Assembly (NCBI GenBank): GCA_043228905.1
Contig: JBHGNT010000006.1
Location: forward strand, 12,896,001-12,960,000
From: Azolla caroliniana
Taxonomy: Eukaryota; Plantae; Polypodiophyta
DNA length: 64,000 nucleotides
Reading direction: 5' to 3'
The translations under genes and the position numbers were made by a program. Positions 3,301-56,786 of this stretch are shown here, in pieces. The notes beneath the pieces were generated by a model. The model was not told the origin of the DNA. It did not search any database and was given only the letters and a program-made list of their open reading frames with translations. How positions within the stretch are numbered: the stretch's first letter is position 1; each line of letters begins with the position of its first letter.

Positions 3301-3981
3301 GCAAATACTGGTTCTCATCCTCGTTGGACAATGACTGAACACCCCGGAGTTCCTCTCAACCCTGCTGCTACGGATCGTCTCAGTCGTCTCCAAGAAGTTC
3401 ACGCTACCATTCTCCACAATTTGTGTGATGCCCAAAGTACATACAAGAGGATTGCGGACCGTCATCGCCTAGACTCCTCAGAAATGTTTCAGGTCGGGGA
3501 TCGTGTATGGCTTCTACAACACAACATCAAGACCACTCGGCCTTGTGGTAAATTAGATTACCAATAGTTCAGCCCATACGATATCATTGGTAAGATAAGC
3601 GATGTTGCATTTCGTCTTGGCCTCCCTCCTCACATGCATCGTCTTGACCCTGTGTTTCATGTCTCCCTTCTCAAACCTTACATCACAAGTTCAATTCTGG
3701 GCCGTCTTACAACTCCCTTGCCACCGATAGAGTTTTTGGAAGGACCGGAATTTGAGGTTTCGGCCATTCTCGATTCCAAGATCGTGCGCAACAAGTTGTA
3801 TTACTTGGTCAATTGGTTAAGCTATACACCCAATGCTCGAACTGGGGAACCTGCTGAAAATTTTGTCAATGTTGCAGACATGGTCACCAAATTTCATCGA
3901 CAATATCCTCATAAGCCCGGTCCTAGTTCAACCCATGTGACTCATGATACGGGTCTTCGAAGAAGGGGGATAGTGTCATGA
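318..3981 (+). pseudogene. pol: pol (PR-RT-RH-IN-chromodomain), disrupted by stops and frameshifts
   Basis: ORF fragments 516..1763 (RT), 1936..2328 (RH), 2641..2934 and 3178..3567 (IN), 3634..3981 (EFEVSAILDSKIVRNKLYYLVNW..., chromodomain). Confidence 0.92.
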
Positions 3982-4432
3982 TGACACTTACATGCAACTT
4001 GGGTTTACAAGGAATCGAACCCACAACCTTGTTATATTCACGTCGAGTTCTTGACCATTGTAATGATATATTTATTTGTAAAAGAATTGATAAACTATAT
4101 GAAATACTATAGAGTAATCTAGAGTACTCTATGTTCTAGAATGTTCTAGAATATTCTAGAGTGCTCTTTTGTCTAGGAAATTCTAGAATATTCTAGCATG
4201 GTCTTTATTCTAGGAAGTTCTAGAATATTCTAGCATGGTCTGTATTCTATGACTTTCTAGAATATCCTATTAAAACTTATAAATATGCATATTACCATAA
4301 GGGATGAACCAATTTGGTTCAATGCCATTCTAGAGCTCCCTTATTTACTCGTTGTATTCCACTCTTCTATTGCAATACATTATCTTTACAATACTCTCAC
4401 TCACTCACTCTCTCTCTCTCTCTCTCTTGACA
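3974..4432 (+). repeat. 3' LTR of chromovirus copy 1
   Basis: Follows the PPT; TGTCA/TGACA termini; internal TCTAGAATATTCTAG palindromic repeats (about 4118-4265); TATAAAT near 4278; (CT)n before the end. Confidence 0.88.
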
Positions 4433-5630
4433 CATGCTCTTCCTGGGTCTTCGAATAAATCAATAGATCATCCAGATAGATGATCAAATAGATATCCAAG
4501 AGATCTCTGACTATATCTTTTGCCATGTGTTGGAAGACTGCGGGCGCATTGGTTAGACCGAACGACATAACGGTATACTCAAAGTGCCCATATCGAGTGC
4601 GAAAAGCGGTCTTCCATTCGTCTCCCAGTCAGATCCGCACAAGGTTATATGCTCCTCGTAAGTTGATTTTTGTAAAAAACTTGGCACCATTTACACGTTC
4701 TAATAGACTTGATATAAGGGGAACTGCATACCTATTCCGAATGGTGACCTTATTCAAGTTGCGGTAATCAATGACGAGACAAAGGAATCTATCTTTCTTT
4801 TTGACAAAGAAAATGGGTGCACCGGCCGGAGATTTTGAATGACGAATAAACCCGCTTGCCAAATTATCTTCTATGTAGACTTGAAGGACTTCCAACTCGG
4901 TTGGTGACAAGCTGTAAATCGGTCCCCACGGTGGCTCTATTCCTAGTTGTAAATCGATGGGACAATCATAGGGACGATGATGAGGAAGAGTACCAGCTCT
5001 GACCTTGCCAAATACATCAGCATAAGGATGATATTTCAAGGGAAGTTGAACTAAGGATTCCTTTTTAATAGTGCTGGAAGGATGTACTGATATTGCAAAT
5101 AGAAACATTGACTCCTTGCATCCTTCTTCACATAATTGATGGAGCGAAATGGTCGAAACTCGATGACTACATTCTCGGGGTTGTCGATACCGGAGTTCTC
5201 TTGTTCTCCAATCTATGTCTCGATTATGTACTTCAAACCAAGGTAATCCCGGGAGAATGGGATGCTCTGGACTACTAATTATATTAAATGATACCACACA
5301 CACAAAGCTATCTATGGGTTCTGACTCTTCTATGATATTCCTAGAAGCAATGGGACGACCATCAATGACTACTACAGATGCAGGGCAAGGAAGTTTTCCT
5401 AAGTATATCTGAGAAGCTTGGGCAAAATTCCGATACATGAAACAAGATTTGGCTCTAGAATCTAAAAGTGCTATGACATGTACTCGAGGGGTACTTTTAG
5501 TACTAATCATGACTTGGGCTAAGAACACATTGCTAACTTGCTTAGAGGGAATGGAACCACTAATGGGCTGCACAGATCTAGGGCTTTCCAACCAAACGGC
5601 TCCTATTTTGGTTGGACTTAGTCGTTTAAC
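4433..5630 (-). pseudogene. pol: pol (PR and partial RT) of copy 2
   Basis: LLDSRAKSCF protease motif; PIFFVKKK and RGAYNLVRI RT motifs. Confidence 0.9.
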
Positions 5631-12932: not shown

Positions 12933-13313
12933 GGAAGTACTATTAGTATTAAGAGGACAGAATGCGTAAGACTCACGAGAGAGAGATAGCGAAGGCGAGA
13001 GAGAGAGAGAGAGAGGATGATGATAACATATGATATATTATGTGAAGAGTAAGTACAAAATAGCTATGAGGCTTAAGACTGGCATTGAACCAATTTGGTT
13101 CGAAATAATGCCTTGTGCCTCTTTTTATAGTGTTCTCAGGAATAGTCCTGAAACTACAAGAATGTTCCGAAGAAATCTAGAATATACAATAATTTTCTAT
13201 AGTAAAACTTAAATGAAAATAATATCTTACGTATTACAATAGATAATGTAATGGTCAAGAGCTCGATACATATAACATAAGGTTATGGGTTCGAGTCTTG
13301 CCATATCATGACA

Positions 13314-20600: not shown

Positions 20601-21475
20601 CAAAGGAGATCCTTTTTCTAACAAAGGGTCGAACCATGATAATGTTGTGCCATTAAGTAAGGTGCCTACTAGTCCCACTCGTGATGCATCGATGGGAGAC
20701 CGAGAAGGATGCATTTGAATCACTAGGCGTACCTAATTAAGGCTATGAATAGTGATCGTGTTCCATCAAATTTCATGGGAAGCCCAATCTTGGGTTCTTT
20801 AGGGATCCCTTGAGTACTCAGTCCTTGTTGTTGCAACGACACAATAGTTGCTTCCAGTTGTTGCACGCGTAATGCCAACTCCCCATGTTGTTGCTGCTTT
20901 TGCTACTTTTCTATAGTGATTTGGTGAAGATCTCCCAACAAACGTTGATTTAATTGTTCGAATGCTACAAATTTTTCTTTCAAGCATTGAAGATTCGAGA
21001 AGAAGGATTGGTATTCTTGTGCACTAATAGTTTCCATTTAGTATTAGAGGAATGAAGGATATGAAGATTAAAATTAGAGGAAGGAGATATTAAGAATATG
21101 GGAAATTCGGTTGAAACTGTGAGGAATAGTACTAGAGGTAGAGAGAATTAGTACTAGAGAGGTAGAGAAGAGAGAAAAGATTGTGTGAGGATCACGAGAG
21201 AGAGAGAGAGAGAGAGAGATCTGGGTGGAAGAGAGAAGTATGATAACATGGAGTATATTATATGAAGTACAGTACAAGGAAAGTTATGAGGATAAAGACT
21301 GGCGTGGAACATCTATTTATAGTATTATCAGGAGTATTCCTACATGAATTTTCCATAATTAAATAATAAATGAAAAAAAAAATTGTATTATAATTGTTAT
21401 CCTAACGGTTTGGCCTCAACCTGTGAACATAAGGTCACAAGTTCAATTCCTTTAGGGCCATACCATATCATGACA
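17663..21475 (-). mobile_element. Ty3/gypsy chromovirus-type (Tcn1-like) copy 3, decayed
   Basis: Homologous to copy 2: gag 20229..20723, PR/RT 18057-19293, RH near 17663-17780. 5' LTR about 21192-21475 begins TGTCATGA on the minus strand. Confidence 0.88.
19508..20233 (-). repeat. Probable solo LTR inserted in the gag of copy 3
   Basis: TG...CA termini; interrupts gag between ...ASVT and AKPF...; flanks CTATA/CTGTG look like a decayed 5-bp TSD; TATA-like TTTATATAAAG. Strand is tentative. Confidence 0.65.
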
Positions 21476-25622: not shown

Positions 25623-26649
25623 TGTCGTGAAGATTTTCGGCAATAGTGTGAAAATCCCATAAAATGTACAAAATCGAGTATGAATCACGTAATACAATAA
25701 TTGTGAAGATAACATTTTTAATATCTAAGTACAAAATGATGGAGGTTTCGAATGCACTTTATTACACAAGAAATGGACAACTAAATGTCAAGATATGAGG
25801 GTATAAAGTTTGTGAAAAGAAAAGAGAAAATTGTGAGATATCCCACATAGGCACGACAAATACGGCTCTCATCATATATAAGGTGGAGCAAAAGATATTA
25901 TCTTTGTGTCTATGTGTGGAGCATAGAGAGTTCAAGGTAACTTGAACTTAGAGTGGAGGTGGCTAGCTACTCGAAAAGGGTTTTGGCCAACCAAAACCGG
26001 ACCGGCGATGGAGCCGGTGATCCGACGGCATCCGACGGCAATCCGGCGGCGGCATGCGGCACCGGTATCCGCATCCGGCGGCGGCACCGGTATCCGGCGA
26101 CGACATTCGACGACGGTATCCGGCGAACCGGCGACTAGATAAAATAAATATATAAAAATATATACATATTTACATATACAAGGAGGGCAAGTATGGACTC
26201 AAACCTTGCACCTCCAAGTTAGGAGTCAAATGGCTTACCATTAAGCCATGGTATTTAGTTGAAATTATATTTCTATCATTGTACTTTTACATGTAAATTC
26301 TCATCCATGAGTGCTAAAATGAGTGACATGATTAGCATGCACCACATGTAATACTTAAGCGCCAAATGGCAAACATGCAATTTATGCATGTCTTGTACCC
26401 TCACATGCATCATATGCATGAGAGCATCTATAAAAGAGGGAAGGGGGAGGAGAAAAACACGGTTTTTTTTTATGAAAATTAAGAAGAAGAAATTCGTTAT
26501 CAAATCAATCGTGTAATCTCATCTTCTCTCTTTCCCAATCTATCTTAAGTACTTTCTCGCCAAAGCTTGTATCGACTCTAAATCCTTCTGGTCCAGAACC
26601 CCGGCGGTTCCGCCTCACGATCCGCGCGTAGTGACGGATCTTCACGACA
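25623..26649 (+). repeat. 5' LTR of element A (1027 bp)
   Basis: Direct repeat of 32447-33505, which has 32 bp more in its GC-rich repeat block. Confidence 0.95.
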
Positions 26650-26657
26650 TAATTAAG

Positions 26658-26675
26658 TGGTGAACCCGACGTGAA
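26658..26675 (+). promoter_or_regulatory. PBS complementary to tRNA-Trp
   Basis: TGGTGAACCCGACGTGAA is the reverse complement of the plant cytosolic tRNA-Trp 3' end (...TTCACGTCGGGTTCACCA, recalled from memory). Confidence 0.9.
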
Positions 26676-26716
26676 CGAGGCGGTAGGAAGGATCAAGTCG
26701 AGATTAATAGTTGGAG

Positions 26717-28889
26717 ATGGCGTCCTCAAGCAACCAAGCGGGAGAGCTCGAAAGGATGATGCTAATCGTCGAGCAAATGATGAGATCTCGGGACAACGAC
26801 GCGAGCGTGGAGAAGGCTGTTGATCGTGTCGTAGAGCTCGAGGGCCAATTCGATGGAAGGAACGTTACGAAGTTCCTTGATGCATATAAGAGGGAGATGA
26901 ATCAAAGGGACGTGTCCGAGGCACGTCAAATCGCAAGCTTCAAGAGAGTTGTCGCCAACAACATCCAAAGACGCATCATCGAGCTTCAAGAAGGAAAGAC
27001 AACATGGTCCGAGTTCGAGAAAACGATACTAGCGGAGTTCGTGACTGAAGACTCAACGAGGATGACTCGACATGCCCTGATGAAGTGGATAGAGAAGAAG
27101 AATAAGAAGATGAGCGTCTCGAGGGTGTACGACGAATTCGACCAGATGTTTAGTCGTCTTCCCAATACGGACCAAGTATTGCTTGAAGAGGACAAGACTT
27201 TGTACTTCTTGAAGGCCGTGGACATAAAGGATAGACGGGAGTTGGGGACTCTTCTCGAAGATGATACCCAAGAAAATGGGCTCGTAGCGGACTGGATCGC
27301 GGTGAAGCGGGCATGCAATAGGCTCGACAAGCATCGCCAATGGGTTGATGACACCGACTTGACGGGACCGACTACCACGGAGAAAGCAAGACCGCCGAAA
27401 GTAGCTGAGCCGCTGAGACAAAGTAACGTGGAAGAAAAGAAGATTGATGACGACATCATCGAAGAGCTAGCGAAGAAGTTCGAGAAGGTCACTCTAGCCA
27501 ACATGAATCGTCGGGGCCCTAAAGGAAAAGAACCCTTTAGATGCGTGTGGTGCGATAGCATGGACCACATGAGAAGGGATTGTGCGAGCCTTTGAGAGGC
27601 GATTCCACATGATCTGCTCAAGCGAGACTAGAAGACCCCTACGGGTGAATTTCGGAAGAGGAGGAATGAAGAGATCTATGGAGGATGCCGATGCGACTCA
27701 TGTGGATGCGATGCACTATGCTGCGTCGGCCGGAATAAGAGTCGGGAAAGACAAGACTGAAGCTGCTAGAGCGGGAGCAAAGTTTTGGACTTCCGTTCTC
27801 GAATATGAGAAGAAGGGAAAAATCACATCGAACGAGGTAGAGCTTGCGGACCGAAGCGTGCAAAGCATAATCGGGTGGTCAGATCCGGTGGATGACAACA
27901 CCATACTCGCAGAGGTGATGTGCGACAACCACGAGGTGTTCGTCGAAGAAAAGAGAAAGAGAATAGAAGAGCAAGGGCCATCAAAAAGACATGAAACAAG
28001 GAATGCGAAAAAGAAGGACAATGCGGAGACGAGTCGACCTTTACAAACGGAGGAATGAGAATCAAGCCGAAAAGGGGAGCCGAGCGTACGAGTTGAAGAA
28101 ACGGTTCGGCCCGTGAAGGTTGGTGTCGAAGACCCCGCTCGGAGGACAAGGACCATACCTACCTATAAGCTAAGGTCGGACATAGAGCAGACGACGGACC
28201 TAAAGAAGATTCTCGAAGAACAAGTTCTTGATAGCCACGTAACTTTGTCCTTGAGGGAATTGCTTGGCATTACGAAGAAGGAGTTCCATGACACGATCGT
28301 GGACCTTGTAAAGAGAAAGAGACAACAATCGGACGAGGAAGAAGAGAAGCCGCAAAAAGCAAAAACGAATGCCATAACGATGGCAAGAGACGAAATCGAT
28401 GAAGATATGATGGACAGCCACTACACTCGACCTCATTGGGCACGAGCGACAACGGAGACGCCGGTGAAGATCGGGGAGAAGAAAGAGACCGTGGTAGCCT
28501 TGATCGACCACGGCTCGGAGATCAACCTCATGTCAACCGACTTCTACAAAAAGGGAAGATGGCCAATCAATACAAACCACGGATGGAAGATTCGCGCAGC
28601 AACAAAGTCTACGGAGGACTTGTACGGAGCTTGTCCCAATGTCAAAGTCACGATCGGGGATGTGGAGAAGGATCAACACTTCTTCGTACAAGAATCGGCG
28701 TTGCATCCTGTCATCCTAGGGCAACCTTATATCACATCATCTCGGATGGAGACCAAAGTGTTCGATAATGGAGCAGCCTTCGCACGAATAAAGAGTCTTG
28801 ACAACCAAAGATCGGTCCAATTCCTAACAGTGCGAGCCAATCATGAAAGGAATCGAGATAGTCTCGGAGGTGAATCCTCGGATTTTTAG
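26717..28889 (+). pseudogene. gag: gag-protease of element A, broken into three ORFs
   Basis: ORFs 26711..27595 (CVWCDSMDHMRRDC knuckle), 27582..28058 and 28113..28889 (ALIDHGSEINLM protease); collinear with the intact ORF 36598..38658. Confidence 0.9.
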
Positions 28890-31800
28890 AGCGGACTATT
28901 GAAGCATGGGACACAAATAGTCCGAGCAATCACAAGACCCCACAAGAAAGAAGAGCGCGTGGATTGCAAGGAGAAGCAACATGTGTCACACCTAGTGGCG
29001 CATGTAAACTAGTACTACCCGACAAGAAGCACAAGCGCCGGATACAAGAATTCGAGAAGATGCTGAAAGAAGAGAACATAATAGAAGAAGGAGAGTTCGT
29101 GACTCATATTATGGAAGAAGCCTCATTTAACGACACCATCGGCGAAATCGAGGACGTCGTGGACTTGAGCTATCTTCACAACCAACGTGTGATTTCGGTT
29201 AACTCCGTCAACATGTACGCTATCATCGATGAATACCGTCGTGGCATCTCGATGAATGAAGCTGACATCAACACGAAATATAAAACAGTGGATAAGAAGA
29301 TCAGGCCAGTTGCGGTTCCGCTACCGGAAGATAGCTGGCAAAAGATGAAGGAAGTCGCTAACGATCCAAGCTTAAGAGATCCGAAGAAGATAGGTCATGA
29401 CTTCACCAAAGAGACGAAGGGGAAGCTACGCGTTGGAAAGGAGGATTTCCTTCTCCCTCAAGAGGAGCGAATGTTTCGCGATATGCTTGAGAGACATGGG
29501 AAGGCTTTCGCATTCTTCCCACGAGAAATCGGATGCGCCGACCCAAAGGTTATAGAGCCAATGGTGATCTTCACGGTGCCTCATGTGCCTTGGAATTTGA
29601 AACCGATACCGGTTCCGAGAGCACACCTTCCGAAGCTGATCGAGCTCTTAAAGGAGAAGGTGAGTATGGGAATTCTAGAACCGTCGAATGCTCCTTATTC
29701 CAATAGGTGGTTCACGGTGCCGAAGAAGAATGGATCATTGCGATTCATCCAAGATCTTCAACCCGTCAACAAGGTGACAATTCGAAATGTTGGAATCGGT
29801 CCGAGCGTGGACGAATTTGCCGAAGCGTTTGCGGGCCGGTCCATCTACTCCATTGGCGATCTCTACTCCGGATATGACCAATTCCAGTTGGTGATCGACA
29901 GTCGGGACATTACAACCATGAGTACTCCGATCGGGCTTGTGCGGATGTGTACCTTACCCCAAGGCGCAACGAACTCGGTGGCTCATATGGTGAATGCCAT
30001 GAATAAAGTCTTGAAGGATTGCATTCCGGACATCACGATGCCATTCTTGGATGATATTTCGATAAAAGGATGTTCGGATGAGGAGGAAGATGAATCGAAA
30101 GATAAGGAAGGTTGTAGAAAGTTCGTTGCGGATCATATGAAAGATTGCGAGAAGGTGCTTCAAAGGCTCGAAGATGCGAATTTGACATTTTCGGGAGAAA
30201 AATCCGCATTCGGGCAACCGGAGATCTTGGTGGTAGGTCACTTGTGTGGAGCATACGGCCGGAAGCCCTCGCCATCCAAAGTGAACGCAATCCAAGACAT
30301 GAAAGAAGAATGCGAAAACCAAACGGAGGTTCGAAGGTTCCTTGGAGCGTGCGCGTTTTATCATATATGGATTCCTCACTACGCTCATGTCGCTGAACCA
30401 TTATATGGACTACTAAAGAAAAGAATAAAGTTCGAATGGCGAGACGAGCACATAGAGGCGATGCGAAGATTAAAGAAACTGCTTCTTGAAGCTCCGGCAC
30501 TAAGGAAGGCCGACTATGCCGAAGGGAAACCAATTTACGTGACCGTAGATACGAGCCCAACCAGAATCGGGTGGGTCATCAATCAAGAAGGTGAAGATAA
30601 TGCGCGATATGCCGTCCGGTTCGGAGCAAAGGTTCTTAGCGAACGGCAACAAAGATATGCCCAAGTCAAGCGGGAACTTGGGGGTATTGTGTCGGCAGTG
30701 AAGACGGACAAAGATTACCTGATAGGGTCAGAAGTGATAATAGAGACAGATTGTCTCCCAATTCTCGGAATGGTCTCGGGATGCACGACCCCAGATCTTG
30801 CTATGCTAAGGTGGATCGCCTACATCAAGTCTTTAAACCCAAAGATCCGTCACATCGCAGGGAAGAAGAACGCCATGGCTGACATGCTGTCGAGGGCAAG
30901 ATTTTCAAATGGAAGTAACATGGTTTCGGAAGATGAAGATGTCGCCCTCGACTTCTTCAAGATGGCTCGATTGTCGGCGGAAGACCAGGACACACAAACC
31001 CTCCACACCTTCAACGAGAACGAGTACGAAGGAGAGTGGTTACTCATCGGTAGATTCCTAAGAACATTGACGACCGATGCTTCGTTGACAAAGGAGGAGG
31101 CCCTACGAATCCGGAAGAAAGCTTATCGATACTTCTTGAAGGGAGGATTCCTTTGGCGACATCCAAAAAGAAGGACAGGAATACCACGTCGAGTGGTGGT
31201 AAAGAAAGAAGAGCAAGAGACGCTGATGACCGAATTCCACGAGAGTGCTTGGGCAGGTCATAGAGGGACATGGGCGACGTTCGAAAAATTGAAGGAGAAG
31301 TACTGGTGGCCAAGCATGTACAAAGATGTACTCCATTTCGTGTCCACATGTGAAACTTGCCAAATATATTCAAATATACGTCATCGTGATGAGTTAAAGC
31401 CGACATACCCACTCACCATTCACTTCAAATGGATGGTGGATCTGGTCTCGATGCCAATGGGAGTGGGACAAATGAAGTACTTAGCGCTCGCAAGGGAAGA
31501 CTTGACAAATCAAGTGGAAGGACGAGCCTTGACAAATAAGACGACTTCAGCCGTTTGTAAATTTTTACTTGAAGATGTTGTTTGCCGATATGGATGTGTA
31601 GGGAAGATAGTGGCCGACCGAGGGGAGTTGGACGCACACGAAGCGACGGAGCTCTTCGGAAGACTAGGCGTGAAGCTCTCCCTCACGACTGCCTACAATC
31701 CGGAAGCAAATGGGAAGATTGAGCGAGGGCATGGACCTATCGTTAAAACCATCGTACAGGCATGCAACGGTCGAGTCGGGAATTGGCCACGACTATTACC

Positions 31801-32374
31801 CTATGCCTTGTGGGCCGATATAACGACATATAGCTCGGTGACAGGGTATATGCCGACGGAGCTTATGTATGGACAAAAGCCGATTATGCCCATCGAAAGG
31901 ACGATCGCCTCATGGGTAGCGATACCATGGGAGAACGAGATGAGCCGAGAAGAGTTATTAGCGGCGCGGATAAGGCAACTTGAAAGAAGACCTGAAGATT
32001 TAGAAAAAGCGCGAAAGATGATGAAGGCAGCCCGAGTAAAGAACAAAGTTCGGTTCGACAACACGCATCGACTTCGTCCCAAGAAGATTGAAGAAGGGGA
32101 TTGGGTTTTGGTTTACGACAGCACCCTTGACAATCAACATAGTACAACAAGGAAGTTCGCAAGAAGATGGTTTGGGCCGTATGTGGTGACAAGTGCCAAC
32201 GATAAGGCCACATACCACCTTGTGGAACTAGACGGATCAAGGTTGGCCGTACCCATTGCGGGAAAAAGAGTAAAGCTTTTCAAGAAAAGACAAGACAAGG
32301 ATCCTCACCTCGATTACCTCGACGATGAACATAATAGGCCGGATGAAAATGAAGACATGGAGGAATCTAATTGA
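28880..32374 (+). CDS. pol: Pol (RT-RH-IN) of element A, open, in the -1 frame relative to gag-PR
   Basis: 1136-aa ORF with RT FLDD, RH VDTS/TDC, IN HHCC, DDE core and WFGPY. Frame is open back to the slippery site. Confidence 0.93.
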   Translation, partial: GFLERTIEAWDTNSPSNHKTPQERRARGLQGEATCVTPSGACKLVLPDKKHKRRIQEFEKMLKEENIIEEGEFVTHIMEEASFNDTIGEIEDVVDLSYLHNQRVISVNSVNMYAIIDEYRRGISMNEADINTKYKTVDKKIRPVAVPLPEDSWQKMKEVANDPSLRDPKKIGHDFTKETKGKLRVGKEDFLLPQEERMFRDMLERHGKAFAFFPREIGCADPKVIEPMVIFTVPHVPWNLKPIPVPRAHLPKLIELLKEKVSMGILEPSNAPYSNRWFTVPKKNGSLRFIQDLQPVNKVTIRNVGIGPSVDEFAEAFAGRSIYSIGDLYSGYDQFQLVIDSRDITTMSTPIGLVRMCTLPQGATNSVAHMVNAMNKVLKDCIPDITMPFLDDISIKGCSDEEEDESKDKEGCRKFVADHMKDCEKVLQRLEDANLTFSGEKSAFGQPEILVVGHLCGAYGRKPSPSKVNAIQDMKEECENQTEVRRFLGACAFYHIWIPHYAHVAEPLYGLLKKRIKFEWRDEHIEAMRRLKKLLLEAPALRKADYAEGKPIYVTVDTSPTRIGWVINQEGEDNARYAVRFGAKVLSERQQRYAQVKRELGGIVSAVKTDKDYLIGSEVIIETDCLPILGMVSGCTTPDLAMLRWIAYIKSLNPKIRHIAGKKNAMADMLSRARFSNGSNMVSEDEDVALDFFKMARLSAEDQDTQTLHTFNENEYEGEWLLIGRFLRTLTTDASLTKEEALRIRKKAYRYFLKGGFLWRHPKRRTGIPRRVVVKKEEQETLMTEFHESAWAGHRGTWATFEKLKEKYWWPSMYKDVLHFVSTCETCQIYSNIRHRDELKPTYPLTIHFKWMVDLVSMPMGVGQMKYLALAREDLTNQVEGRALTNKTTSAVCKFLLEDVVCRYGCVGKIVADRGELDAHEATELFGRLGVKLSLTTAYNPEANGKIERGHGPIVKTIVQACNGRVGNWPRLLPYALWADITTYSSVTGYMPTELMYGQKPIMPIERTIASWVAIPWENEMSREELLAARIRQLERRPEDLEKARKMMKAARVKNKVRFDNTHRLRPKKIEEGDWVLVYDSTLDNQHSTTRKFARRWFGPYVVTSANDKATYHLVELDGSRLAVPIAGKRVKLFKKRQDKDPHLDYLDDEHNRPDENEDMEESN

Positions 32375-32446
32375 TCATCGTAGCCGAAATCTCACTTCTT
32401 CTCTTCTTGGCACGTACCGGAGGACGTGCGGTTTGGTGGGGGTGGA

Positions 32447-33505
32447 TGTCGTGAAGATTTTCGGCAATAGTGTGAAAATCCCATAAAACGTACAAAATCG
32501 AGTATGAATCACGTAATACAATAATTGTGAAGATAACATTTTTAATATCTAAGTACAAAATGATGGAGGTTTCGAATGCACTTTATTACACGAGAAATGG
32601 ACAACTAAATGTCAAGATATGAGGGTATAAAGTTTGTGAAAAGAAAAGAGAAAATTGTGAGATATCCCGCATAGGCACGACAAATACGGCTCTCATCATA
32701 TATAAGGTGGAGCAAAAGATATTATCTTTGTGTCTATGTGTGGAGCATAGAGAGTTCAAGGTAACTTGAACTTAGAGTGGAGGTGGCTAGCTACTCGAAA
32801 AGGGTTTTGGCCAACCAAAACCGGACCGGCGATGGAGCCGGTAATCCGACGGCATCCGACGGCAATCCGGCGGCGGCATGCGGCACCGGTATCCGGCGTC
32901 GGCGTCGGTATCCGGCATCGGTATCCGCATCCGGCGGCGGCACCGGTATCCGGCGACGACATCCGGCGACGGTATCCGGCGAACCGGCGACTAGATAAAA
33001 TAAATATATAAAAATATATACATATTTACATATACAAGGAGGGCAAGTATGGATTCAAACCTTGCACCTCCAAGTTAGGAGTCAAATGGCTTACCATTAA
33101 GCCATGGTATTTAGTTGAAATTATATTTCTATCATTGTACTTTTACATGTAAATTCTCATCCATGAGTGCTAAAATGAGTGACATGGTTAGCATGCACCA
33201 CATGTAATACTTAAGCGCCAAATGGAAAACATGCAATTTATGCATGTCTTGTACCCTCACATGCATCATATGCATGAGAGCATCTATAAAAGAGGGAAGG
33301 GGGAGGAGAAAAACACGGTTTTTTTTTATGAAAATTAAGAAGAAGAAATTTGTTATCAAATCAATCGTGTAATCTCATCTTCTCTCTTTCCCAATCTATC
33401 TTAAGTACTTTCTCGCCAAAGCTTGTATCGACTCTAAATCCTTCTGGTCCAGAACCCCGGCGGTTCCGCCTCACGATCCGCGCGTAGTGACGGATCTTCA
33501 CGACA
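32447..33505 (+). repeat. 3' LTR of element A (1059 bp)
   Basis: Matches the 5' LTR with few SNPs. Confidence 0.95.
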
Positions 33506-35850: not shown

Positions 35851-36579
35851 TATCGTAGTGTATTTTGTACACTACGTGAAAAACGTATATAGTATTAGAT
35901 TCAATAAAAAATGAAGAAATAGAAGAAAATAGCAAAATAAATGGAACATGCATAGGGCAAGATTCGAACCTTGCACCTCCATGTTAATAATGTAATGTCT
36001 TACCATTACACTAGCATTTCATTAGTGTTAAAGCATAGATGTCCCACATAGAAAGGTAAATTCACGCTAGGATAAACATTAGAAAAACGCATAACAAAAG
36101 AAAAAGCTACACATACACATCTAGCGTGCATGATAAAAAACGCACAAGTTAGAAAAAAGCATGATCACTTTAGATAAAGCATATAGTCTATCTATAGGAA
36201 AAGCATGGGGTCTATAGTTAGAGAAAAAGCATGGATTACTAAGACTTCCTCATCACTACATAAGGATGGGGAGCACAATGTAATAGGCGTGTGAAAAATA
36301 TTTGGAAACTGGATATGTTTCTAAAAAACACCAATTAATAAACTATACTCGTGGGATTCACGAGAATTCTATATCATTCTCTTTCAACCGAAGTTTATAT
36401 TCTTATATTCATATTGATTAATCTAATACAATACACTCGTGGGATTCACGAGTTTGCTATAACTCTTTCTTACAACATATTTATATTCTTATTAGCCTTA
36501 AAACTCTCCTCTTCCTAGTCCAAAACCCCAGCGGTTCCCACCCGACTCACGCAACGATCTGGCGCCGAAAGGCACGACA
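35851..36579 (+). repeat. 5' LTR of element B
   Basis: TATCGTAGTG...CACGACA; direct repeat of 42759-43487. Confidence 0.95.
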
Positions 36580-36584
36580 CAAGT

Positions 36585-36602
36585 TGGTGAACCCGACGTG
36601 AA
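36585..36602 (+). promoter_or_regulatory. PBS complementary to tRNA-Trp
   Basis: TGGTGAACCCGACGTGAA, the same as in element A. Confidence 0.9.
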
Positions 36603-36618
36603 AGCGGGTGGCAAGGAG

Positions 36619-38658
36619 ATGGAGGCTCAACAAGCTAACAATATCATGGCGATGTTCGAACGGATGCTTCAAGAACAACGCATGATGTCGGAGATTTCGG
36701 CATCAGTAGAGCGGCTCGTGCAACGCAACGGGCAATTTAATGGTAAGGATGTGTCGCGATATTTGCAGGACTACAAGGCGGAGATGCTCCGGTGCCGGGC
36801 TTCGGAAGGACTGCAAGTGACATCCTTTAACCGGGTGGCGACCGACGGGCTTCAAGGGAGTATCCACGGGTTGCAACAACAAAATCCGACGTGGGAAGCA
36901 TTCGAAGAGGCGTTAAAGACCACGTTTGCCATCGAGGACTCCTCCAAGGCAACGCGGAGGGGATTCGAGGATTGGGTGGAAACGTCAGGTAAGGGGCTGA
37001 AGGTCCTCGAAGTGTTTTCGACATTCGAAAGTCGGTTCGGGAGGTTGTCCGCGAGAGATCAAACTATTCTTGCACCGGACAAAGTCATCATGTTTTTGCG
37101 AGCTGTGGACGTCCGGGACCGGAAAGATCTCGGAGTGCTTCTTGAGGACACGACCACCGAAAGCGGCCTCACCGAAACATGGGAAAGCGTGCGGGATATC
37201 GTCGCGCGGTACACGAAGAGGGGGCAATGGCTTGCCAACGAAGAAAAGAGGGTTTCGGAACCGATTCCGAAACCGAGAACGGGACTGGAAGACCATCAAC
37301 CGAGGGCTCGGGAGATTACGGCCGAGAAGGGAGTCGACGCATCTACGGTGGAGCAGCTGCTGAAGGAGATGGAGAATCTAAAGATCGCGATGGTGAAGAA
37401 GTCGGATGACCGCCCCACAAGCTCCAAATATACGGATCGACGGTGCATATGGTGCGACAGCGCCGAACACGATCGGAGGGATTGCGACGACCATAAGGAG
37501 GCGCTACGACGGGATCTCATCTACTACGAGGGAAACCGGATTCATTCGATGGACTCTCGGAAGCCACTCCGACCGAACTTCCGGAAAGGCGGCATGAAGA
37601 AGGTGCTCGAGGAGGAGTTAGCGGCAAGAAGCAACTATGCGACAACCGCGGGAATATGTGTCGGGGAGTCATCGGGAGCGAAGGCGTCTTTCTGGCCGGA
37701 GGTGCTAAGAAACACCGAGAAAACCGACTCCAACGATATCCGAAACACCGCGGAAGGCGTCCGGGAAGCTACGGGATGGGAATGCCTTGTCGATAAGAAT
37801 AGCATATACGCCCTGTGTCAATTACATGAGGTGTATGTGGACGAGAAACGACGGCGCACGGAGGATGCGGCCGGACCATCGAAGATACCGGAAAGCTGGA
37901 ACTCCGGAGGTAAGGGAAAAGAAAAGGCGACTCCGGCATTCAAGCTCGCCTCGGACATAGAACAACAAACCGACTTGAAAAGAGTGTTCGAGGAAAGAAT
38001 CTTGGATAGCCGGGTAGATTTTTCGCTGCGGGAACTACTCGGAATAGCGAAGAAGGAGTTTCACGATCTTCTCGTGGATCTCGTGAAAAGGAAGAGACAA
38101 AGTACGGAGGAAAATGCTCCAAGGGTGAATGCAAATACCGTTTCAATGAACGACACCGAAGTGGAAGGCGAAATTCCGAACTCCCACTATACAAGGCCAC
38201 ACTGGGCACGTGCGACTACGGAGACTCCGGTCCGAATCGGCAACATCAAAGAACCCGTGCTAGCATTGATTGATCACGGATCGGAGATCAACTTGATGTC
38301 CAAGGAGTTCTACCGAAAGGGGAAGTGGCCTATAAACACCAACCATGGATGGAAGATTCGGGCAGCCACGAAAACGACAGAAGACCTATTTGCGGCTTGT
38401 CCGGATGTGACGGTAAAGATCGGGGATGTCGAAATTGACCAAAATTTCTTTGTGCAGGATGAGGTTTCACATTCTGTCATCCTCGGCCAACCCTTTATCA
38501 CGGCTTCACGGATAGAGACGAAGGTGCTCGATAGTGGTGCGGCTTTTGCGCGAATTCGGAGCCAAAACGGAGGGAAATCCGTCCAATTCCTAACGGTGCC
38601 GGCAAATCACGAAAGGAACAAGAGGGAACTCTTGTCCCAAGTGAGAATGGATTTTTAA
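36619..38658 (+). CDS. gag: Gag-protease polyprotein of element B
   Basis: Open ORF (track 36598..38658, first ATG at 36619) with CIWCDSAEHDRRDC knuckle and ALIDHGSEINLM aspartic protease. Confidence 0.93.
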   Translation: MEAQQANNIMAMFERMLQEQRMMSEISASVERLVQRNGQFNGKDVSRYLQDYKAEMLRCRASEGLQVTSFNRVATDGLQGSIHGLQQQNPTWEAFEEALKTTFAIEDSSKATRRGFEDWVETSGKGLKVLEVFSTFESRFGRLSARDQTILAPDKVIMFLRAVDVRDRKDLGVLLEDTTTESGLTETWESVRDIVARYTKRGQWLANEEKRVSEPIPKPRTGLEDHQPRAREITAEKGVDASTVEQLLKEMENLKIAMVKKSDDRPTSSKYTDRRCIWCDSAEHDRRDCDDHKEALRRDLIYYEGNRIHSMDSRKPLRPNFRKGGMKKVLEEELAARSNYATTAGICVGESSGAKASFWPEVLRNTEKTDSNDIRNTAEGVREATGWECLVDKNSIYALCQLHEVYVDEKRRRTEDAAGPSKIPESWNSGGKGKEKATPAFKLASDIEQQTDLKRVFEERILDSRVDFSLRELLGIAKKEFHDLLVDLVKRKRQSTEENAPRVNANTVSMNDTEVEGEIPNSHYTRPHWARATTETPVRIGNIKEPVLALIDHGSEINLMSKEFYRKGKWPINTNHGWKIRAATKTTEDLFAACPDVTVKIGDVEIDQNFFVQDEVSHSVILGQPFITASRIETKVLDSGAAFARIRSQNGGKSVQFLTVPANHERNKRELLSQVRMDF

Positions 38659-41600
38659 AGCGGACTGTTGCGGAGTGGGGAAGTGATAGTCCGAGAAGCC
38701 CTGATACCCCACACAGGAAGAAAACTCTCGGAGCAAAACAAGTACGAATCGGCCCGGATGGGGCATCTACGTACACGGCCGTAACCGGAGGAATGAAGAA
38801 ACAATACCGACAAGTGGAGGATAAGTTACGGTCGGCATCAATAATAAAAGAAGACGAAGAAATCGTGGGAGTGATCGAGGAAGTGTTCTATGGGAATACA
38901 CTACAACGGCTTGAAGAGCTTGCGGAAGATAAAAGCCAAGGGAACCGGGTAGTCCCGGTGGAATCGGTCGAGATGTACGAGATCGTTGCGAAAATGGGGC
39001 CGGATGCGCTCCGCAAAGAAGAAGCAATGGTAAGTACGAAATACAAGACCGTGGAGAAGAAGGTGAAACCAGCCGCGGGACCACTACCCGCCGATAGCGA
39101 ACAAAAGAAGAAAGAAGTCTCGGGAGATCCGACACTTCGGAAGTCCGTGGATATCGGACATGCCTTCACGGATGAGACCCGGAAGAAACTTCGGATCGGT
39201 GGAGGTGGGTTCCTATTACAGAAAGAAGAAGAACGGTTTCGCGAGATGTTGGAGCAACATGGCAAAGCATTCGCTTTCACATCGAGGGAGATCGGGTGCA
39301 TTGATCCAAAGATAGTGGAGCCGATGGTGATTTTCACGATTGATCATGTACCGTGGAACCTGAAGCCGATTCCGGTGCCACGGGCGCATATTCCGAAAGT
39401 CATCGACTTGCTCAAGGAGAAGGTGGCGATGGGGATTCTAGAGCCATCAAGTGCTCCGTACTCAAATCGATGGTTTACGGTTCCGAAGAAGAATGGGTCA
39501 CTCCGATTCATCCAAGACTTGCAACCGGTGAACAAGGTCACGATCCGGAACTCGGGAGTCGGTCCGATAGTGGACGAATTCGCGGAAGCTTTTGCCGGAC
39601 GTGCGATATACTCCATCGGGGACCTATACTCGGGGTATGACCAATTCCAACTAGCCGTGGAGAGCCGAGACATCACTACCATGCGGACACCGATAGGACT
39701 AGTTCGAATGTGCACACTACCACAAGGAGCGACAAACTCGGTTGCACATATGATGAACGCGATGAACAAGGTGCTTCGAGATTGCATCCCGGAGATAACG
39801 ATGCCGTTTCTAGATGACATTCCGATGAAAGGATGCGCGGTGAAAGAAAAAGATGAGACTATGGATGATCGGGGATGCCGAAAGTTCGTGGTCGACCATA
39901 TTCATGATTGCGAGAAAGTGTTGCGAAAGCTAGAAGATGTGCACCTAACACTTTCCGGGGAGAAATCGGCATTCGGGCAAGAAGAAATATTGGTGGTCGG
40001 ACATCTATGTGGACCCTACGGCCGAAGACCGTCACCAACAAAGATCGATGCGATTCAAGCTATGAAGGAAGTATGTGAGTCAACATCGGAAGTCCGAAGG
40101 TTTCTGGGTGCGTGTGCATTCTATCACATATGGATTCCGCACTATGCACATATAGCGGACCCGCTCTATCACTTGTTGCGGAAAGGTAAGAAATTCGAGT
40201 GGAAACCGGAACACACTAAAGCCATGAGGAAGCTCAAGAAGACACTATGGAGGGCGGAATCACTTAAGAAGCCAAGCTACGAGCGGCCAATCATAGTAAC
40301 GGTTGATACAAGTCCAACCGGTATCGGGTGGGTCATCAATCAAGCCGACTCGGATGGTTCGCGGTATCCGATCCGATTTGGAGCAAAGGTCCTCAACGAA
40401 AGGCAACGCGGATATGCACAAGTCAAAAGAGAATTGTGGGGAGTCGTGTCGGCGATAAAATCAGATCGGGATTATTTGATCGGAGCTGAAGTGGTGATCG
40501 AGACGGATTGTCTTCCGATACTCGGGATGATGCGGTGTTGTACGATACCGGATGTGGCTATGCTAAGGTGGATTGCATATGTCAAGTCACTTAATCCGGA
40601 GGTTCGACACATCTCGGGGAAGGACAACGCGGTAGCGGACATGTTATCGAGGGCGCGGTTTGAAGACAACATTACCGAATCAGATAATGATGGTGGAAGA
40701 TATTGGTGGAAGAACATGTATAAAGATGTCGCGGAGTTCACAGAAAGCTGCGAGAAATGTCAAGTCTACTCCGGGGTCCGACACCGAGATGAGCTGCATC
40801 CGACATTCTCACCGACAATCAACTTCAAGTGGATGGTCGACATTGTAGCTATGCCGACCGGGATTGGACAAAAGAAATACTTGGTGTTAGCTCGAGAAGA
40901 TCTCACAAACCAAGTTGAAGGTCGAGCGCTTCGGAGGAAAACGTGTGCCGCGGTGTGCCAATTTCTTTTGGAAGAAGTGTTTTGTAGGTACGGCTGCGTA
41001 GGACAAGTGATTGCGGACCGGGGAGAACTCGACTCGGACAAAGCTAGGGGATTCTTCGCCAAACATGGAGTTCGGTTAACGTTGACAACGGCCTACAATC
41101 CGGAGGCCAACGGGAAGATCGAACGAGGACATAGTCCGATCGTGAAAGCACTTGCGAAGGCATGCGACGGAAGGGTGAAGGATTGGCCACAAATGCTTCC
41201 GTATGCACTATGGGCGGATCGGACGACGCATAGCTCCGTGACCGGTTACATGCCGGCAGAACTCATGACCGGACAAGCACCGGTAATGCCAACGGAAACC
41301 GCAATCGCGACATGGTCAATACTACCGTGGAAGGAAGAGATGAGCCGGGAAGAACTACTAGCGGTCCGGATACGACAACTGGAGGGAAGACCGAAAGATG
41401 TAGCGGAAGCGTCACGCCGACAACAAGAAGCACGGTTCCGGAACAAAAGCCGGTTCGACACAAAGCACCGACTACGACCGAGGAGGATTGAAGAAGGAGA
41501 TTGGGTGATCGTCTATGATAGTAGCTTGGACCATCAACATACAACGATGCGGAAATTCGCGAAAAGGTGGTTCGGGCCGTACGAGGTTCGGAAGGTCTTC

Positions 41601-41912
41601 GACAACGGGACGTACCGACTGTCCGAGTTGGATGGAACAATACTACGAGTGCCTATAGCCGGGAAGCGGGTGAAGATTTTCAAGAAGCGGACCGACGACA
41701 AACCTTATGTGATCCAAGTCGAGGCCGACAACGAGGAGCAATCGGACGAAGACCACAATGATGCGGGAAGCGAAGAAAGTGGATTACAACTCATAGTCGA
41801 CATAAGGGGAGAATCGGAGGAAGCTTCGGATGAAGACGGATACGAAGAATCAAGAACTTCGGCACATACCGGAGGATGTGCGGGTTTGGAGGGGGCGAGT
41901 GTCGTAGTGTAG
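38649..41912 (+). CDS. pol: Pol (RT-RH-IN) of element B, -1 frame, with an in-frame deletion before the IN core
   Basis: 1039-aa ORF collinear with the Pol of element A but lacking about 120 aa near 40690. Confidence 0.9.
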   Translation, partial: GFLKRTVAEWGSDSPRSPDTPHRKKTLGAKQVRIGPDGASTYTAVTGGMKKQYRQVEDKLRSASIIKEDEEIVGVIEEVFYGNTLQRLEELAEDKSQGNRVVPVESVEMYEIVAKMGPDALRKEEAMVSTKYKTVEKKVKPAAGPLPADSEQKKKEVSGDPTLRKSVDIGHAFTDETRKKLRIGGGGFLLQKEEERFREMLEQHGKAFAFTSREIGCIDPKIVEPMVIFTIDHVPWNLKPIPVPRAHIPKVIDLLKEKVAMGILEPSSAPYSNRWFTVPKKNGSLRFIQDLQPVNKVTIRNSGVGPIVDEFAEAFAGRAIYSIGDLYSGYDQFQLAVESRDITTMRTPIGLVRMCTLPQGATNSVAHMMNAMNKVLRDCIPEITMPFLDDIPMKGCAVKEKDETMDDRGCRKFVVDHIHDCEKVLRKLEDVHLTLSGEKSAFGQEEILVVGHLCGPYGRRPSPTKIDAIQAMKEVCESTSEVRRFLGACAFYHIWIPHYAHIADPLYHLLRKGKKFEWKPEHTKAMRKLKKTLWRAESLKKPSYERPIIVTVDTSPTGIGWVINQADSDGSRYPIRFGAKVLNERQRGYAQVKRELWGVVSAIKSDRDYLIGAEVVIETDCLPILGMMRCCTIPDVAMLRWIAYVKSLNPEVRHISGKDNAVADMLSRARFEDNITESDNDGGRYWWKNMYKDVAEFTESCEKCQVYSGVRHRDELHPTFSPTINFKWMVDIVAMPTGIGQKKYLVLAREDLTNQVEGRALRRKTCAAVCQFLLEEVFCRYGCVGQVIADRGELDSDKARGFFAKHGVRLTLTTAYNPEANGKIERGHSPIVKALAKACDGRVKDWPQMLPYALWADRTTHSSVTGYMPAELMTGQAPVMPTETAIATWSILPWKEEMSREELLAVRIRQLEGRPKDVAEASRRQQEARFRNKSRFDTKHRLRPRRIEEGDWVIVYDSSLDHQHTTMRKFAKRWFGPYEVRKVFDNGTYRLSELDGTILRVPIAGKRVKIFKKRTDDKPYVIQVEADNEEQSDEDHNDAGSEESGLQLIVDIRGESEEASDEDGYEESRTSAHTGGCAGLEGASVVV

Positions 41913-42746
41913 GTTGCACACTATGTGGAAATTATATTTTTGTCCCTCTGGATAGAAAATGGAGTGCTCGGTGAGAAACGGAAGAAAACGGCATACCGGC
42001 AAGGAGGAAAACGGCATACCGTCAAGGAGGAAAACGGCATACCGAAAAGGAGGAAAACGGCATACCGGCAAGGAGGAAAACGGCATACCGGCAAGGAGGA
42101 AAACGGCATACCGGCAAGGAAGAAAACGGCATACCGGCAAATGTAAAAAGAAAGAGACATAAATGTAAAAAGAAAGAAAATACTCACTGCTGCGCAGGGC
42201 GTGATTCGAACTCTGCACCTCCACGTTGACAAACCCCAACCTTACCATTACATTAACTTATCTTAAGTGTTTTAAATATAGATTTAATACGTATAAGACC
42301 TTTATTTATGCATACCTTTATTAAAAGGTAAATCGTGTATTTTTTTAATATATGAAAAAGAAAAACGCGAGACACTAAAAATAACTCATGCACATCTAGC
42401 GTGCATGAGCCCTATACTTAGGAAATAAAAAAGCATCACATGGACATTTAGTGGACATGAACACTTTTTGTAAAAAAAAAAAGCATGAAGCCATGCTTAG
42501 CTCTTCTTTCCTTATATAAGGAGGAGAGAAATATGTAAAGGGTTGTTGATTATTTGGATTAAGTATTAATCAATACAAAAATTATTCGTGGGATTCACGA
42601 TTTATACATCTACTTCTCTCTTAACATCCTAAGTACCAATTAATATAGTATACTCGTGTGATTCACGAGTTTCTTATCTTTCTCTTTGCTATTTACTCAT
42701 AATTAATCTCTATCTCACGAACTTCTTTCTCCTAGTCCAAGACCTC
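41900..42746 (+). repeat. Internal heterologous LTR (3'-truncated) with seven 23-bp tandem units
   Basis: Follows PPT GGAGGGGGCGAG; starts TGTCGTAGTG; resembles solo LTR 52371-53154; unit AAAACGGCATACCGGCAAGGAGG at about 41985-42140. Confidence 0.88.
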
Positions 42747-42758
42747 TGTGGTGGTGAG

Positions 42759-43487
42759 TGTCGTAGTGTATTTTGTACACTACGTGAAAAACGTATATAG
42801 TATTAGATTCAATAAAAAATGAAGAAATAGAAGAAAATAGCAAAATAAATGGAACATGCATAGGGCAAGATTCGAACCTTGCACCTCCATGTTAATAATG
42901 TAATGTCTTACCATTACACTAGCATTTCATTAGTGTTAAAGCATAGATGTCCCACATAGAAAGGTAAATTCACGCTAGGATAAACATTAGAAAAACGCAT
43001 AACAAAAGAAAAAGCTACACATACACATCTAGCGTGCATGATAAAAAACGCACAAGTTAGAAAAAAGCATGATCACTTTAGATAAAGCATATAGTCTATC
43101 TATAGGAAAAGCATGGGGTCTATAGTTAGAGAAAAAGCATGGATTACTAAGACTTCCTCATCACTACATAAGGATGGGGAGCACAATGTAATAGGCGTGT
43201 GAAAAATATTTGGAAACTGGATATGTTTCTAAAAAACACCAATTAATAAACTATACTCGTGGGATTCACGAGAATTCTATATCATTCTCTTTCAACCGAA
43301 GTTTATATTCTTATATTCATATTGATTAATCTAATACAATACACTCGTGGGATTCACGAGTTTGCTATAACTCTTTCTTACAACATATTTATATTCTTAT
43401 TAGCCTTAAAACTCTCCTCTTCCTAGTCCAAAACCCCAGCGGTTCCCACCCGACTCACGCAACGATCTGGCGCCGAAAGGCACGACA
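42759..43487 (+). repeat. 3' LTR of element B
   Basis: TGTCGTAGTG...CACGACA, followed by TSD ACGC. Confidence 0.95.
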
Positions 43488-45479: not shown

Positions 45480-46651
45480 CGTATGAGCAAAGAAACACAG
45501 GGACACAGCCCTATCAACGCAGAAGACACGAATGGACATAGAGACAGAGAGACACGAATGTTTGTATATTAATGAATGACAAATAAACAACAGAGCACGC
45601 GAGCGGTTATAACCGAACAGGCCGGCGAACAGATGTCGATGCCTGCTCGTGTGCGCACGAAAGGGGATAGAATGGAGGTGCTGCCGGAAGCACACGGGCG
45701 TTCCTCGAAGCAGTGCGAGCCTCCCGAAAACCTGCAGAGAAGAGCGATGGAGAACGAACAAAGGAGAAGCGTTCGGTTTCGGTCCGACAGCACTTCGTCC
45801 TCCTCAATAAAATAATGTGCGCCCCTCTCCCCGCGTCTCCCTCTCTTTTATAGCTTCAAGAAGGGAGTCGTTTCCCTCATTAACTTCCTACCTACTGAAT
45901 CTAACTACCTAGGATATACCTTTGTACCTAATTCTATATTATATACATTAAAGGGCGTGCACGCGTGAAGAGCTGGTTCACGCGCGCTATGCACCGATTG
46001 CGCTAAGGGACGGTTTTCTTCACGAAAACGGAGGTCTTGGACTAAGGAGTAGAGGAGAAGGAATAGGACACGGAAAGGAAGCTATGCTCAAGAAGAAGAA
46101 GAATGAACAAGAGGAAGATGGAGACAAGATGAACAACAAGATGTATTAAAACGAGATGAACGATTACAAAATGGTGGCCGCATAGGCCGCACCAAACAAC
46201 TACTCGAAACCCTAACCCTAACCCTAACACTTGACCTATGTGGTATACCTCGCACACTCAAAATAGGCAACCCTCACAATGGTGCCTTCCCTCTGCTTTC
46301 ATAACACAAGGAGGGAAGACCGTTTACAAAAACGAGACTAAAATATCCCCTTTCATTCAAAGGGAATATTTGCCTTGATTTGGGGGAGGGTGAGATTGAT
46401 GGCCCCTTAACTCCCACCTCCTCACAAACGACTAGGTACCTATGTACCGCATAGTACCTCTCTCTCTCGCGTGGATGTGCGCACAAGACCACATCGCCTT
46501 TATACCTTAGGGATCTTATGGGGCATTTCTAGCACCATACCCTTTACCCCTATTATTATTATTAATACATTATGTACGTGTGCAACGTTGCACATCGCTC
46601 TTTGGCTCTCGTTGCTCGGGTTTCCGCTCGTGGACGAAAATCTTCACGACA
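45480..46651 (-). repeat. LTR-derived sequence of the A/B lineage (possibly two nested LTRs, junction near 45962)
   Basis: Minus strand starts TGTCGTGAAGATTTTCG like the element A LTR; contains TAGTCCAAGACCTC as in LTR 41900; TATA-like CTATAAAAG near 45850; interrupts copia RT at EHWDA. Confidence 0.7.
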
Positions 46652-52370: not shown

Positions 52371-53154
52371 TGTCGTAGTGTAATTCGCACACTACGTGAA
52401 AATTGCATTTTTGTCCCTCTGGATGGAACCGGTAAGGAGGAACCGGTGAGAACCGGATGAAGGATGGAATCGGCAAGGAGGAACCGGTAAGGAGACCCGA
52501 TAAGAACCGGATCAAGCAGAACCAGCAAGAGTCGGATAAAGAAGGCCGGGGAGAGTCTCTCACTGGATGAAGAGACAAATTTGTAAATAGAAGAAAATAT
52601 TGTTACATGCATAGGGTAAGATTCAAACCCTGTACCTCCATGTTAACAATTTTTAAGCCTTACCACTATACTAGCATATTATGAATTTTAAAGTTATACT
52701 AAATTTTATCCCATGTAAATATTCTAGATATGCATGGTACAAAAAGTTATTCATGCATACACACTCGAGTTAAAAGAAAAGATGGGATAGAAAGCTAATC
52801 ATGCACATGCAGTGTGCATGAAAACTAAAGTTAGGAAAAGCATGATGCTTGCATGTGATAAACTTAGACTCTTCCAACACTATATAAGGAAGAGAGAAAG
52901 ATGTATAGGTTGTTGATTTTTATAAGGTTTGAATAATATAAAACAATCGTGGGATTCACGATTTTTCCATCTATTTCTCTCTTACAATCCAAGTATCAAT
53001 TAATGCACTATACTCGTGGGATTCACGAGTTTCATGTCTTCTTCTTGCAATTTCTTCCTAACTAACATTATCTCATATTCTTCTTTCTCCTAGTCCAAAA
53101 CCCAGCGGTTCTCACCTAACTCACGCAAACGATCCGGCGCCGAAAGGCACGACA
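52371..53154 (+). repeat. Solo LTR of the element B lineage
   Basis: TGTCGTAGTG...GGCACGACA; 4-bp TSD CCGT at 52367-52370 and 53155-53158; no PBS or PPT. Confidence 0.93.
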
Positions 53155-56730: not shown

Positions 56731-56786
56731 TGGCACGCCTGGTGGGACCCGAACCCACAATCCCTTGATTAGAAGTCAAGTGCCTT
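56731..56786 (-). pseudogene. Partial retro-copy of mature tRNA-Arg(UCU), nt 21-76 including CCA, forming an extended PBS
   Basis: Reverse complement reads AAGGCA CTTGA CTTCTAA TCAAG GGATT GTGGG TTCGGGT CCCAC CAGGCGT G CCA, with perfect anticodon and T stems. Confidence 0.9.

Follow-up and report, generated by a model that had tools for sequence, protein, structure and literature searches.

Degraded tRNA-derived modules, each pairing a Pol III A box with a B box, recur in the LTRs of autonomous gypsy elements from two distant lineages, and we tentatively interpret them as putative TFIIIC docking sites that would help to keep a nearby TATA promoter accessible in heterochromatin. The LTR module is real, recurrent and apparently undescribed, a Pol III-in-LTR design that appears in autonomous elements of both lineages.

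tRNA-derived modules in gypsy LTRs

The window, which is the whole 64-kb stretch of DNA that was analysed, is a nest of LTR retrotransposons. A scan built from the generic type-2 Pol III A-box and B-box consensus alone gives nine matches in the window, all nine in gypsy LTRs, with the boxes 42–44 nt apart; ten dinucleotide shuffles of the window give 0, 1, 3, 2, 0, 0, 0, 1, 1 and 1 matches. Across the window and the related LTRs described below, these sites present a type-2 promoter layout, with A and B boxes at tRNA spacing (42–45 nt). The module on which the initial annotation centred lies in the 5′ LTR of element B (Table 1). Its reverse complement reads as quoted in that annotation, with both boxes in place, and homologous modules were found at all five other places that it named.

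The likeness of this module to a tRNA holds in register and falls short in score. Positions 8–63 of RF00005 align in register to 36013–35957 with 13.4 bits (E 8.4), below the gathering threshold of 29, and a whole-window Rfam search at normal thresholds reported none of the modules. The GCAAG/CTTGC stem pointed out initially is present, shifted one base from the canonical T-arm register with RF00005 needing an inserted base, and neither the D-stem nor the T-stem is conserved in a set of 28 modules. ARAGORN called no tRNA gene in the window or in the 54 of 81 loci that were scanned. We rejected a functional tRNA gene on the score, on the absence of an ARAGORN call and on cloverleaf pairs that are not kept.

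Table 1 Coordinates of modules and host features in the window.
Feature	Position	Strand	Basis or remark
tRNA-derived module, element B 5′ LTR	35949..36017	−	RF00005 alignment and A/B-box scan
A box of B 5′ LTR module	36003–36013	−	
AGGT of B 5′ LTR module	35975–35978	−	
B box of B 5′ LTR module	35960–35970	−	
First T4 run past B box	35934..35937	−	candidate Pol III terminator; putative role
Element B 5′ LTR	35851..36579	+	TSD ACGC at 35847–35850
TATA-like box of B LTR, TACATAA (sister LTRs TATATAA)	36257..36263	+	LTR alignment; putative role
Element B primer-binding site	36585..36602	+	presumably tRNA-Trp
Element B gag and pol frames	36502..41912	+	RT, RNase H, integrase; without chromodomain
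Inner 3′ LTR of B, L036-type	41900..42758	+	module 42190–42254 on −
Outer 3′ LTR of B	42759..43487	+	module 42857–42925 on −; TSD ACGC follows
Element A 5′ LTR	25623..26649	+	module 26186–26251 on −; tRNA position 56 is T in the B box
Element A gag and pol frames	26711..32374	+	
Element A 3′ LTR	32447..33505	+	module 33043–33107 on −
Solo LTR	52371..53154	+	TSD CCGT; module 52609–52675 on −
3′ LTR, chromodomain-bearing Tcn1-like element	3974..4433	+	antisense module ~4000–4065, B box 4011–4021
Chromodomain of Tcn1-like element	3730..3945	+	PF00385, 33.9 bits, cut-off 25.1
Module in 5′ LTR of minus-strand Tcn1-like element	13244..13298	+	antisense to element; LTR edge 13313
Module in 5′ LTR of third Tcn1-like element	21398..21450	+	antisense to element; LTR edge 21475

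Host elements in two lineages

The gag-pol frames in the window bear out that the modules are located in LTRs of coding gypsy elements. Elements A (25623–33505) and B (35851–43487) are 7–8-kb gag-pol elements with a TATA box; they encode gag, RT, RNase H and integrase and have no chromodomain. Elements of this type fit Phygy as described in the accessible text of Neumann 2019 (PMC6317226), with no chromodomain, coding that spans the interior and an NCGN target. The TSDs are four-base NCGN (ACGC, ACGC; CCGT for the solo LTR), and A, B and the solo LTR are inserted at NCGN sites within copia sequence. The closest named relatives of the A polymerase are from a liverwort, Riccia sorocarpa (~66% identity), with metagenomic matches of up to 94%. 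Six of the eight Phygy-type LTRs in the window bear a module; two further Phygy-type LTRs (~45480–46650, minus strand) carry none, and none was found in the approximately eight copia LTR pieces of the window, delimited by eye. The 5′ and outer 3′ LTRs of B are identical at 728 of 729 positions, so their two modules count as one observation.

Element B is a recent recombinant with the arrangement LTR–interior–LTR′–LTR: both the interior and the inner 3′ LTR belong with the family of related locus L036 (integrase 99%), and its two outer LTRs resemble L034. The LTR of element A looks chimeric, combining L052/L001-type and L002-type LTRs, and has two TATA-like boxes, one on either side of the module, at ~25880 and ~26428. 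A conserved CATGCA-rich palindrome, which we take to be RY-like, lies between module and TATA at 36107–36133, 42387–42407, 52800–52820 and 26336–26420 and likewise in L017, L044 and L046, and is common to many module-bearing LTRs. On the minus strand at 56742–56791, the primer site of another gypsy element carries ~50 nt resembling tRNA-Arg(UCU) (RF00005 30.9 bits), an unusually long capture that is followed by a partial PBS repeat.

The other three of the nine window matches lie in Tcn1-like LTRs, a lineage separate from the Phygy-type elements, and every Tcn1-like LTR in the window (3/3) bears a module. These elements, which have a Ty3-type gag, are Tcn1-like in their chromodomain, their lack of a tRNA PBS and their self-priming-type complement; by eye, no TGG PBS follows two of the 5′ LTRs, and a 9-nt complement of this type is present in one. 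The initial annotation described the module for Trp-primed gypsy LTRs; a restriction to such elements fails on these three Tcn1-like LTRs. Here the B box is 14–37 nt from the outer LTR edge, a boundary position.

Three further observations concern this lineage and its surroundings. Palindromic TTCTAGAA repeats, presumably resembling heat-shock elements, occupy 4098–4270 in a Tcn1-like U3. Locus L016 has a further antisense module at 11950–12080, near the start of a possible Tcn1-like LTR inside copia sequence. A different tRNA-like repeat, possibly a SINE or pseudogene, stands outside LTRs at 13360–13428 (plus strand) and matches L012 3031–3141 at 79%, being partly duplicated in L012.

Modules in related LTRs

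Out of 246 confirmed metagenome loci, the best 80 by Phygy integrase alignment were taken as relatives, and their selection is therefore independent of module presence. Forty-seven of the 80 loci, listed by hand, were usable in that the start of the 3′ LTR and 375 nt or more were available. A/B-box matches occur in 19 of these 47 LTRs, compared with 0–2 in 20 shuffles and none in 47 internal control segments; the other 28 LTRs have no match. Seventeen of the 19 scoring LTRs are credible and two, L011 and L076, are doubtful, with 45-nt spacing and three mismatches, on a U5 motif common to these LTRs. In some families this motif, which Phygy LTRs have close to their 3′ end (~36515–36540 and equivalents; L011, L076, L035), resembles a lone B box. 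A profile trained on 28 modules, circular for those modules and used solely for extra weak copies, adds copies in L031, L038 and L030 and a second one in L051.

The antisense orientation that was initially reported as invariable applies to all nine window modules and breaks down among the relatives, where 16 modules are antisense and 8 are sense (6 sense without the doubtful two). Sense modules lie upstream of the TATA box in L005, L006 and L040 and downstream of it in L021, L023 and L048, and the latter three LTRs hold two or three modules each. On the integrase tree, modules turn up along many deep branches, whole clades have none, and sister families differ in the module (L022 versus L025 at 94% integrase identity, L070 versus L001 at 96%). 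The module is an optional feature of LTRs.

By their sequence outside the boxes, the modules form several groups: B, A, L002, L017 and L046 (34–78%); L022 and L048; the antisense modules of L021 and L023; the Tcn1-like modules; and several sense types. Between groups, non-box identity is at approximately chance level, which would fit both repeated capture and old saturation. The L046 and L017 modules are 63–67% identical to that of B outside the boxes, at 68–69% integrase identity. U3 blocks appear to have been exchanged between families. In L042, half of the B box is lost from an A-type LTR. A search of viral contigs returned one distant chromovirus only (L081), without a module, and no free module copy outside LTRs was found in the 486 kb searched.

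Conservation of boxes and absence of a common fold

Across 28 aligned modules, in which box columns are conserved partly through scan selection, G18, G19, G53, T54, T55, A58 and C61 are invariant (28/28). Several tRNA positions that were not selected are also kept, namely Y33 (28/28), A38 (22/28), A44 (25/28), G45 (27/28), G46 (28/28) and T47 (25/28). The proposed tRNA origin is supported by the tRNA-like sequence, by the spacing and by these unselected positions. C56, a critical base for TFIIIC, reads T in 4 of the 28 modules, among them those of both A LTRs, and in 2 of 7 in the B clade; the T in both LTRs of element A indicates that A transposed with it.

Finer comparison is possible in the B clade, represented by the solo LTR and four rows that the integrase tree singled out (B, solo, L049, L047 and L036; L034 and the inner LTR were dropped as near duplicates). 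Pairwise identity, gaps excluded, is 0.80 in the A box, 0.87 in the B box and 1.0 in AGGT, versus 0.62 in the anticodon arm and 0.53–0.69 in the flanks, in agreement with the initial observation that the boxes are kept while the anticodon region drifts. The same holds site by site: 18 of 26 columns in the boxes and AGGT are invariant, compared with 7 of 21 in the spacer (Fisher, p 0.02) and 18 of 77 in the flanks (p 4e-5), AGGT having been joined to the box class post hoc, once its conservation in the 28 modules was seen. Box spacing in this clade is nearly indel-free inside an indel-rich U3. Contigs of runs X2 and X4 aligned at 80% or more pile on 35950–35979, the B-box half, far above the flanks; this peak, a measure of cover and not of copy number, fits an island that diverged LTRs have in common. 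These sequence comparisons lend moderate support to selection on the boxes.

A conserved RNA fold did not survive the analysis. The named pairs of the cloverleaf are formed in 47.3% of cells in the 28 modules versus 48.2% after shuffling, with 386 of 500 shuffles as high; RNAalifold found no consensus pair across the aligned modules; and single-module hairpins have z < −2 in 7 of 28 cases, compared with 17 of 36 control LTR windows (control mean z −1.88). On these three results we rejected a conserved cloverleaf or dumbbell.

A candidate TFIIIC docking site

Box conservation without a cloverleaf points to promoter logic rather than RNA structure, and the variable orientation and copy number suit a binding site. 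tDNA/TFIIIC sites act as barriers. Under the tentative docking-site interpretation, tRNA genes or tRNA-SINE heads would have been captured into U3, once or several times, and reverse transcription would have copied the captured module to both LTRs. TFIIIC may then bind the boxes, perhaps with TFIIIB/Pol III, with a short transcript of ~85–110 nt as a possible by-product. A local nucleosome-poor or barrier effect would favour Pol II transcription of the element, and the bipartite DNA signal might in this way buffer the Pol II promoter from the surrounding heterochromatin.

The element RNA itself is probably made by Pol II, given an antisense module and a TATA box ~110–290 nt further into the LTR. 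An antisense module with a T-run behind it cannot make genomic RNA; most copies are antisense, with a T-run ~25 nt past the B box, and the idea that the module serves as the promoter of the element's RNA is thereby not supported. Docking is supported by the occurrence of the module in a chromovirus lineage without a tRNA primer site, near the outer LTR edge. Against it, most LTRs lack the module and close sister families differ; the B box is damaged in some families, by C56T or by the loss of half of it in L042; AGGT and Y33 are kept though they are not classic promoter bases; and recent spread could mimic conservation, as U3 blocks were apparently swapped between families.

The T-runs bear on an alternative that treats the module as a small Pol III gene; its short RNA, in most cases antisense to U3, would be the functional product and would either regulate or give rise to small RNAs. 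Reading in the direction of the module, 25 of 37 modules, among them all four sense U3 modules, have a T4 run in the next 80 nt downstream, compared with 9 of 37 that have an A4 run there; the sequence upstream of modules is A-rich; and, according to the accessible text of PMC3993851, foamy virus LTR miRNAs rely on an A box, a B box and a terminator. However, the T-run bias, strong among antisense modules (18 versus 4 of 24), is weak in the sense class (7 versus 5 of 13) and might stem from U3 strands rich in A, and no T4 run follows the module inside Tcn1-like LTRs. The absent common fold, hairpins no stronger than in control LTR windows and non-box sequence near chance identity between groups also make such a gene unlikely.

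In another reading, the modules are passive relics of tRNA-SINE or tRNA insertions that were reshuffled with U3 blocks. Their patchy presence, damaged B boxes in active families and swapped U3 blocks would be explained; these elements do capture tRNA accidentally, as in the tRNA-Arg copy at the PBS described above; a tRNA-like repeat exists outside LTRs at 13360–13428 and in L012; and SINE insertion is proposed as Helenus's origin in the available portion of Kojima 2024 (PMC10886601). We nevertheless judge this improbable, as boxes and spacing within a single clade outlast the spacer and the flanks, both boxes are retained in each of at least five module groups that are unrelated outside them, and neither the 47 internal control segments nor the copia LTRs of the window give a match.

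A third possibility is that the antisense module acts on the genomic RNA, where the 3′ U3 copy would pair with a packaged tRNA and aid minus-strand transfer, as reported for HIV-1 U3-R. Most modules are antisense and in U3, and the positions that persist (D-loop, AGGT, T-loop, Y33) are ones that many tRNAs have in common. This is very unlikely, because sense copies exist, because positions 62–73 match the PBS-defined primer 3′ end at a mean of only 3.6/12 with CCA absent in 28 of 28 modules, and because the Tcn1-like elements have no tRNA PBS and instead a self-priming-type complement (compare the accessible text of Neumann 2019, PMC6317226). The mean match of 3.6/12 and the missing CCA likewise leave descent from the primer tRNA unsupported. 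It is scarcely credible that the module is a landing pad for Pol III-targeting retroelements that builds heterochromatic clusters: the tRNA-like repeat at 13360 does have the end of one Tcn1-like 5′ LTR ~46 nt upstream, whereas none of the nine window modules, judged by eye, has an insertion immediately upstream, and A, B and the solo LTR occupy NCGN sites in copia sequence.

Beyond the docking-site interpretation itself lies a bolder proposal, which we consider rather doubtful, that unrelated gypsy lineages have several times, and separately from one another, domesticated tRNA genes to serve as portable TFIIIC insulators or else as mini Pol III genes; such a cis-acting device against silencing would keep elements that live in heterochromatin transcribable.

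Implications

The open question on which these modules may bear is how gypsy elements dwelling in heterochromatin keep their promoters usable. Most known plant counter-silencing is protein-based. A tRNA-type site in an LTR is a small, mutable target, and sister families at 94–96% integrase identity, with and without the module, allow a natural and direct comparison. The modules would carry the Pol III-in-LTR design beyond non-coding TRIMs, into autonomous plant elements, and host heterochromatin is predicted to hide many B boxes and pseudo-tRNAs.

Comparison with known systems

A literature check, with Repbase entries, subscription papers and preprint supplements outside its scope, found no description of such a module, in line with the initial annotation. 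The hosts fit the Phygy and Tcn1 clades by TSD, domain content and priming as given in the accessible text of Neumann 2019 (PMC6317226), and that text describes no tRNA-like LTR module. The word ‘tRNA’ is absent from the accessible text of Vendrell-Mir 2020 (PMC7466625), and the available parts of PMC7466625, PMC11899658, PMC3350952, PMC13570524, PMC6468702 and PMC11241228 contain no description of the module.

In HIV-1, U3-R contains a tRNA-Lys3-like sequence that is tRNA-complementary on the genomic RNA (Piekna-Przybylska 2010, as cited in the accessible text of PMC6468702 and PMC11241228). The present modules are similar in placing tRNA-gene-like sequence within U3. They differ in that, by the same portions of these sources, HIV-1 matches its primer tRNA, whereas our modules do not match the primer 3′ end and also occur in a lineage without a tRNA PBS. 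Foamy virus offers a parallel as an autonomous retroelement with Pol III boxes in its LTR, where A/B-box units and terminators stand beside a Pol II promoter; its cassettes make conserved hairpin precursors, in the available text of Kincaid 2014 (PMC3993851), whereas our modules have no conserved fold.

Cassandra and Ajax TRIMs likewise hold a Pol III promoter from a small-RNA gene within the LTR. They are 5S-derived and non-autonomous, and in Cassandra the promoter drives the element's RNA (accessible text of PMC10886601); the present modules, in contrast, are tRNA-derived and gave no 5S rRNA match in Rfam searches. Cassandra, the comparison offered initially, therefore gives way to Helenus (TRIMp3), the nearer published case. 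As far as the available text of Kojima 2024 (PMC10886601) goes, Helenus elements are non-coding, 311–1263 bp long, and have tRNA-derived LTR sequence with conserved boxes A and B and no functional tRNA, for which multiple origins by SINE insertion are proposed; in the Helenus LTRs SMo and ToGe (supplement) the module is sense and presumed to be the sole promoter. The same portion of that paper argues that the autonomous partners have to rely on Pol II, and it remarks, without analysis, that ‘not a few LTRs’ in Repbase look like part of a tRNA. Our modules share with Helenus a tRNA-derived LTR sequence in which boxes A and B are conserved. Their hosts, unlike the short non-coding TRIMs, are gag-pol elements with RT, RNase H and integrase, and the modules number up to three per LTR and are antisense in 9 of 9 cases in the window and 16 of 24 in the relatives. 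With coding hosts and mostly antisense modules, they fall outside Helenus.
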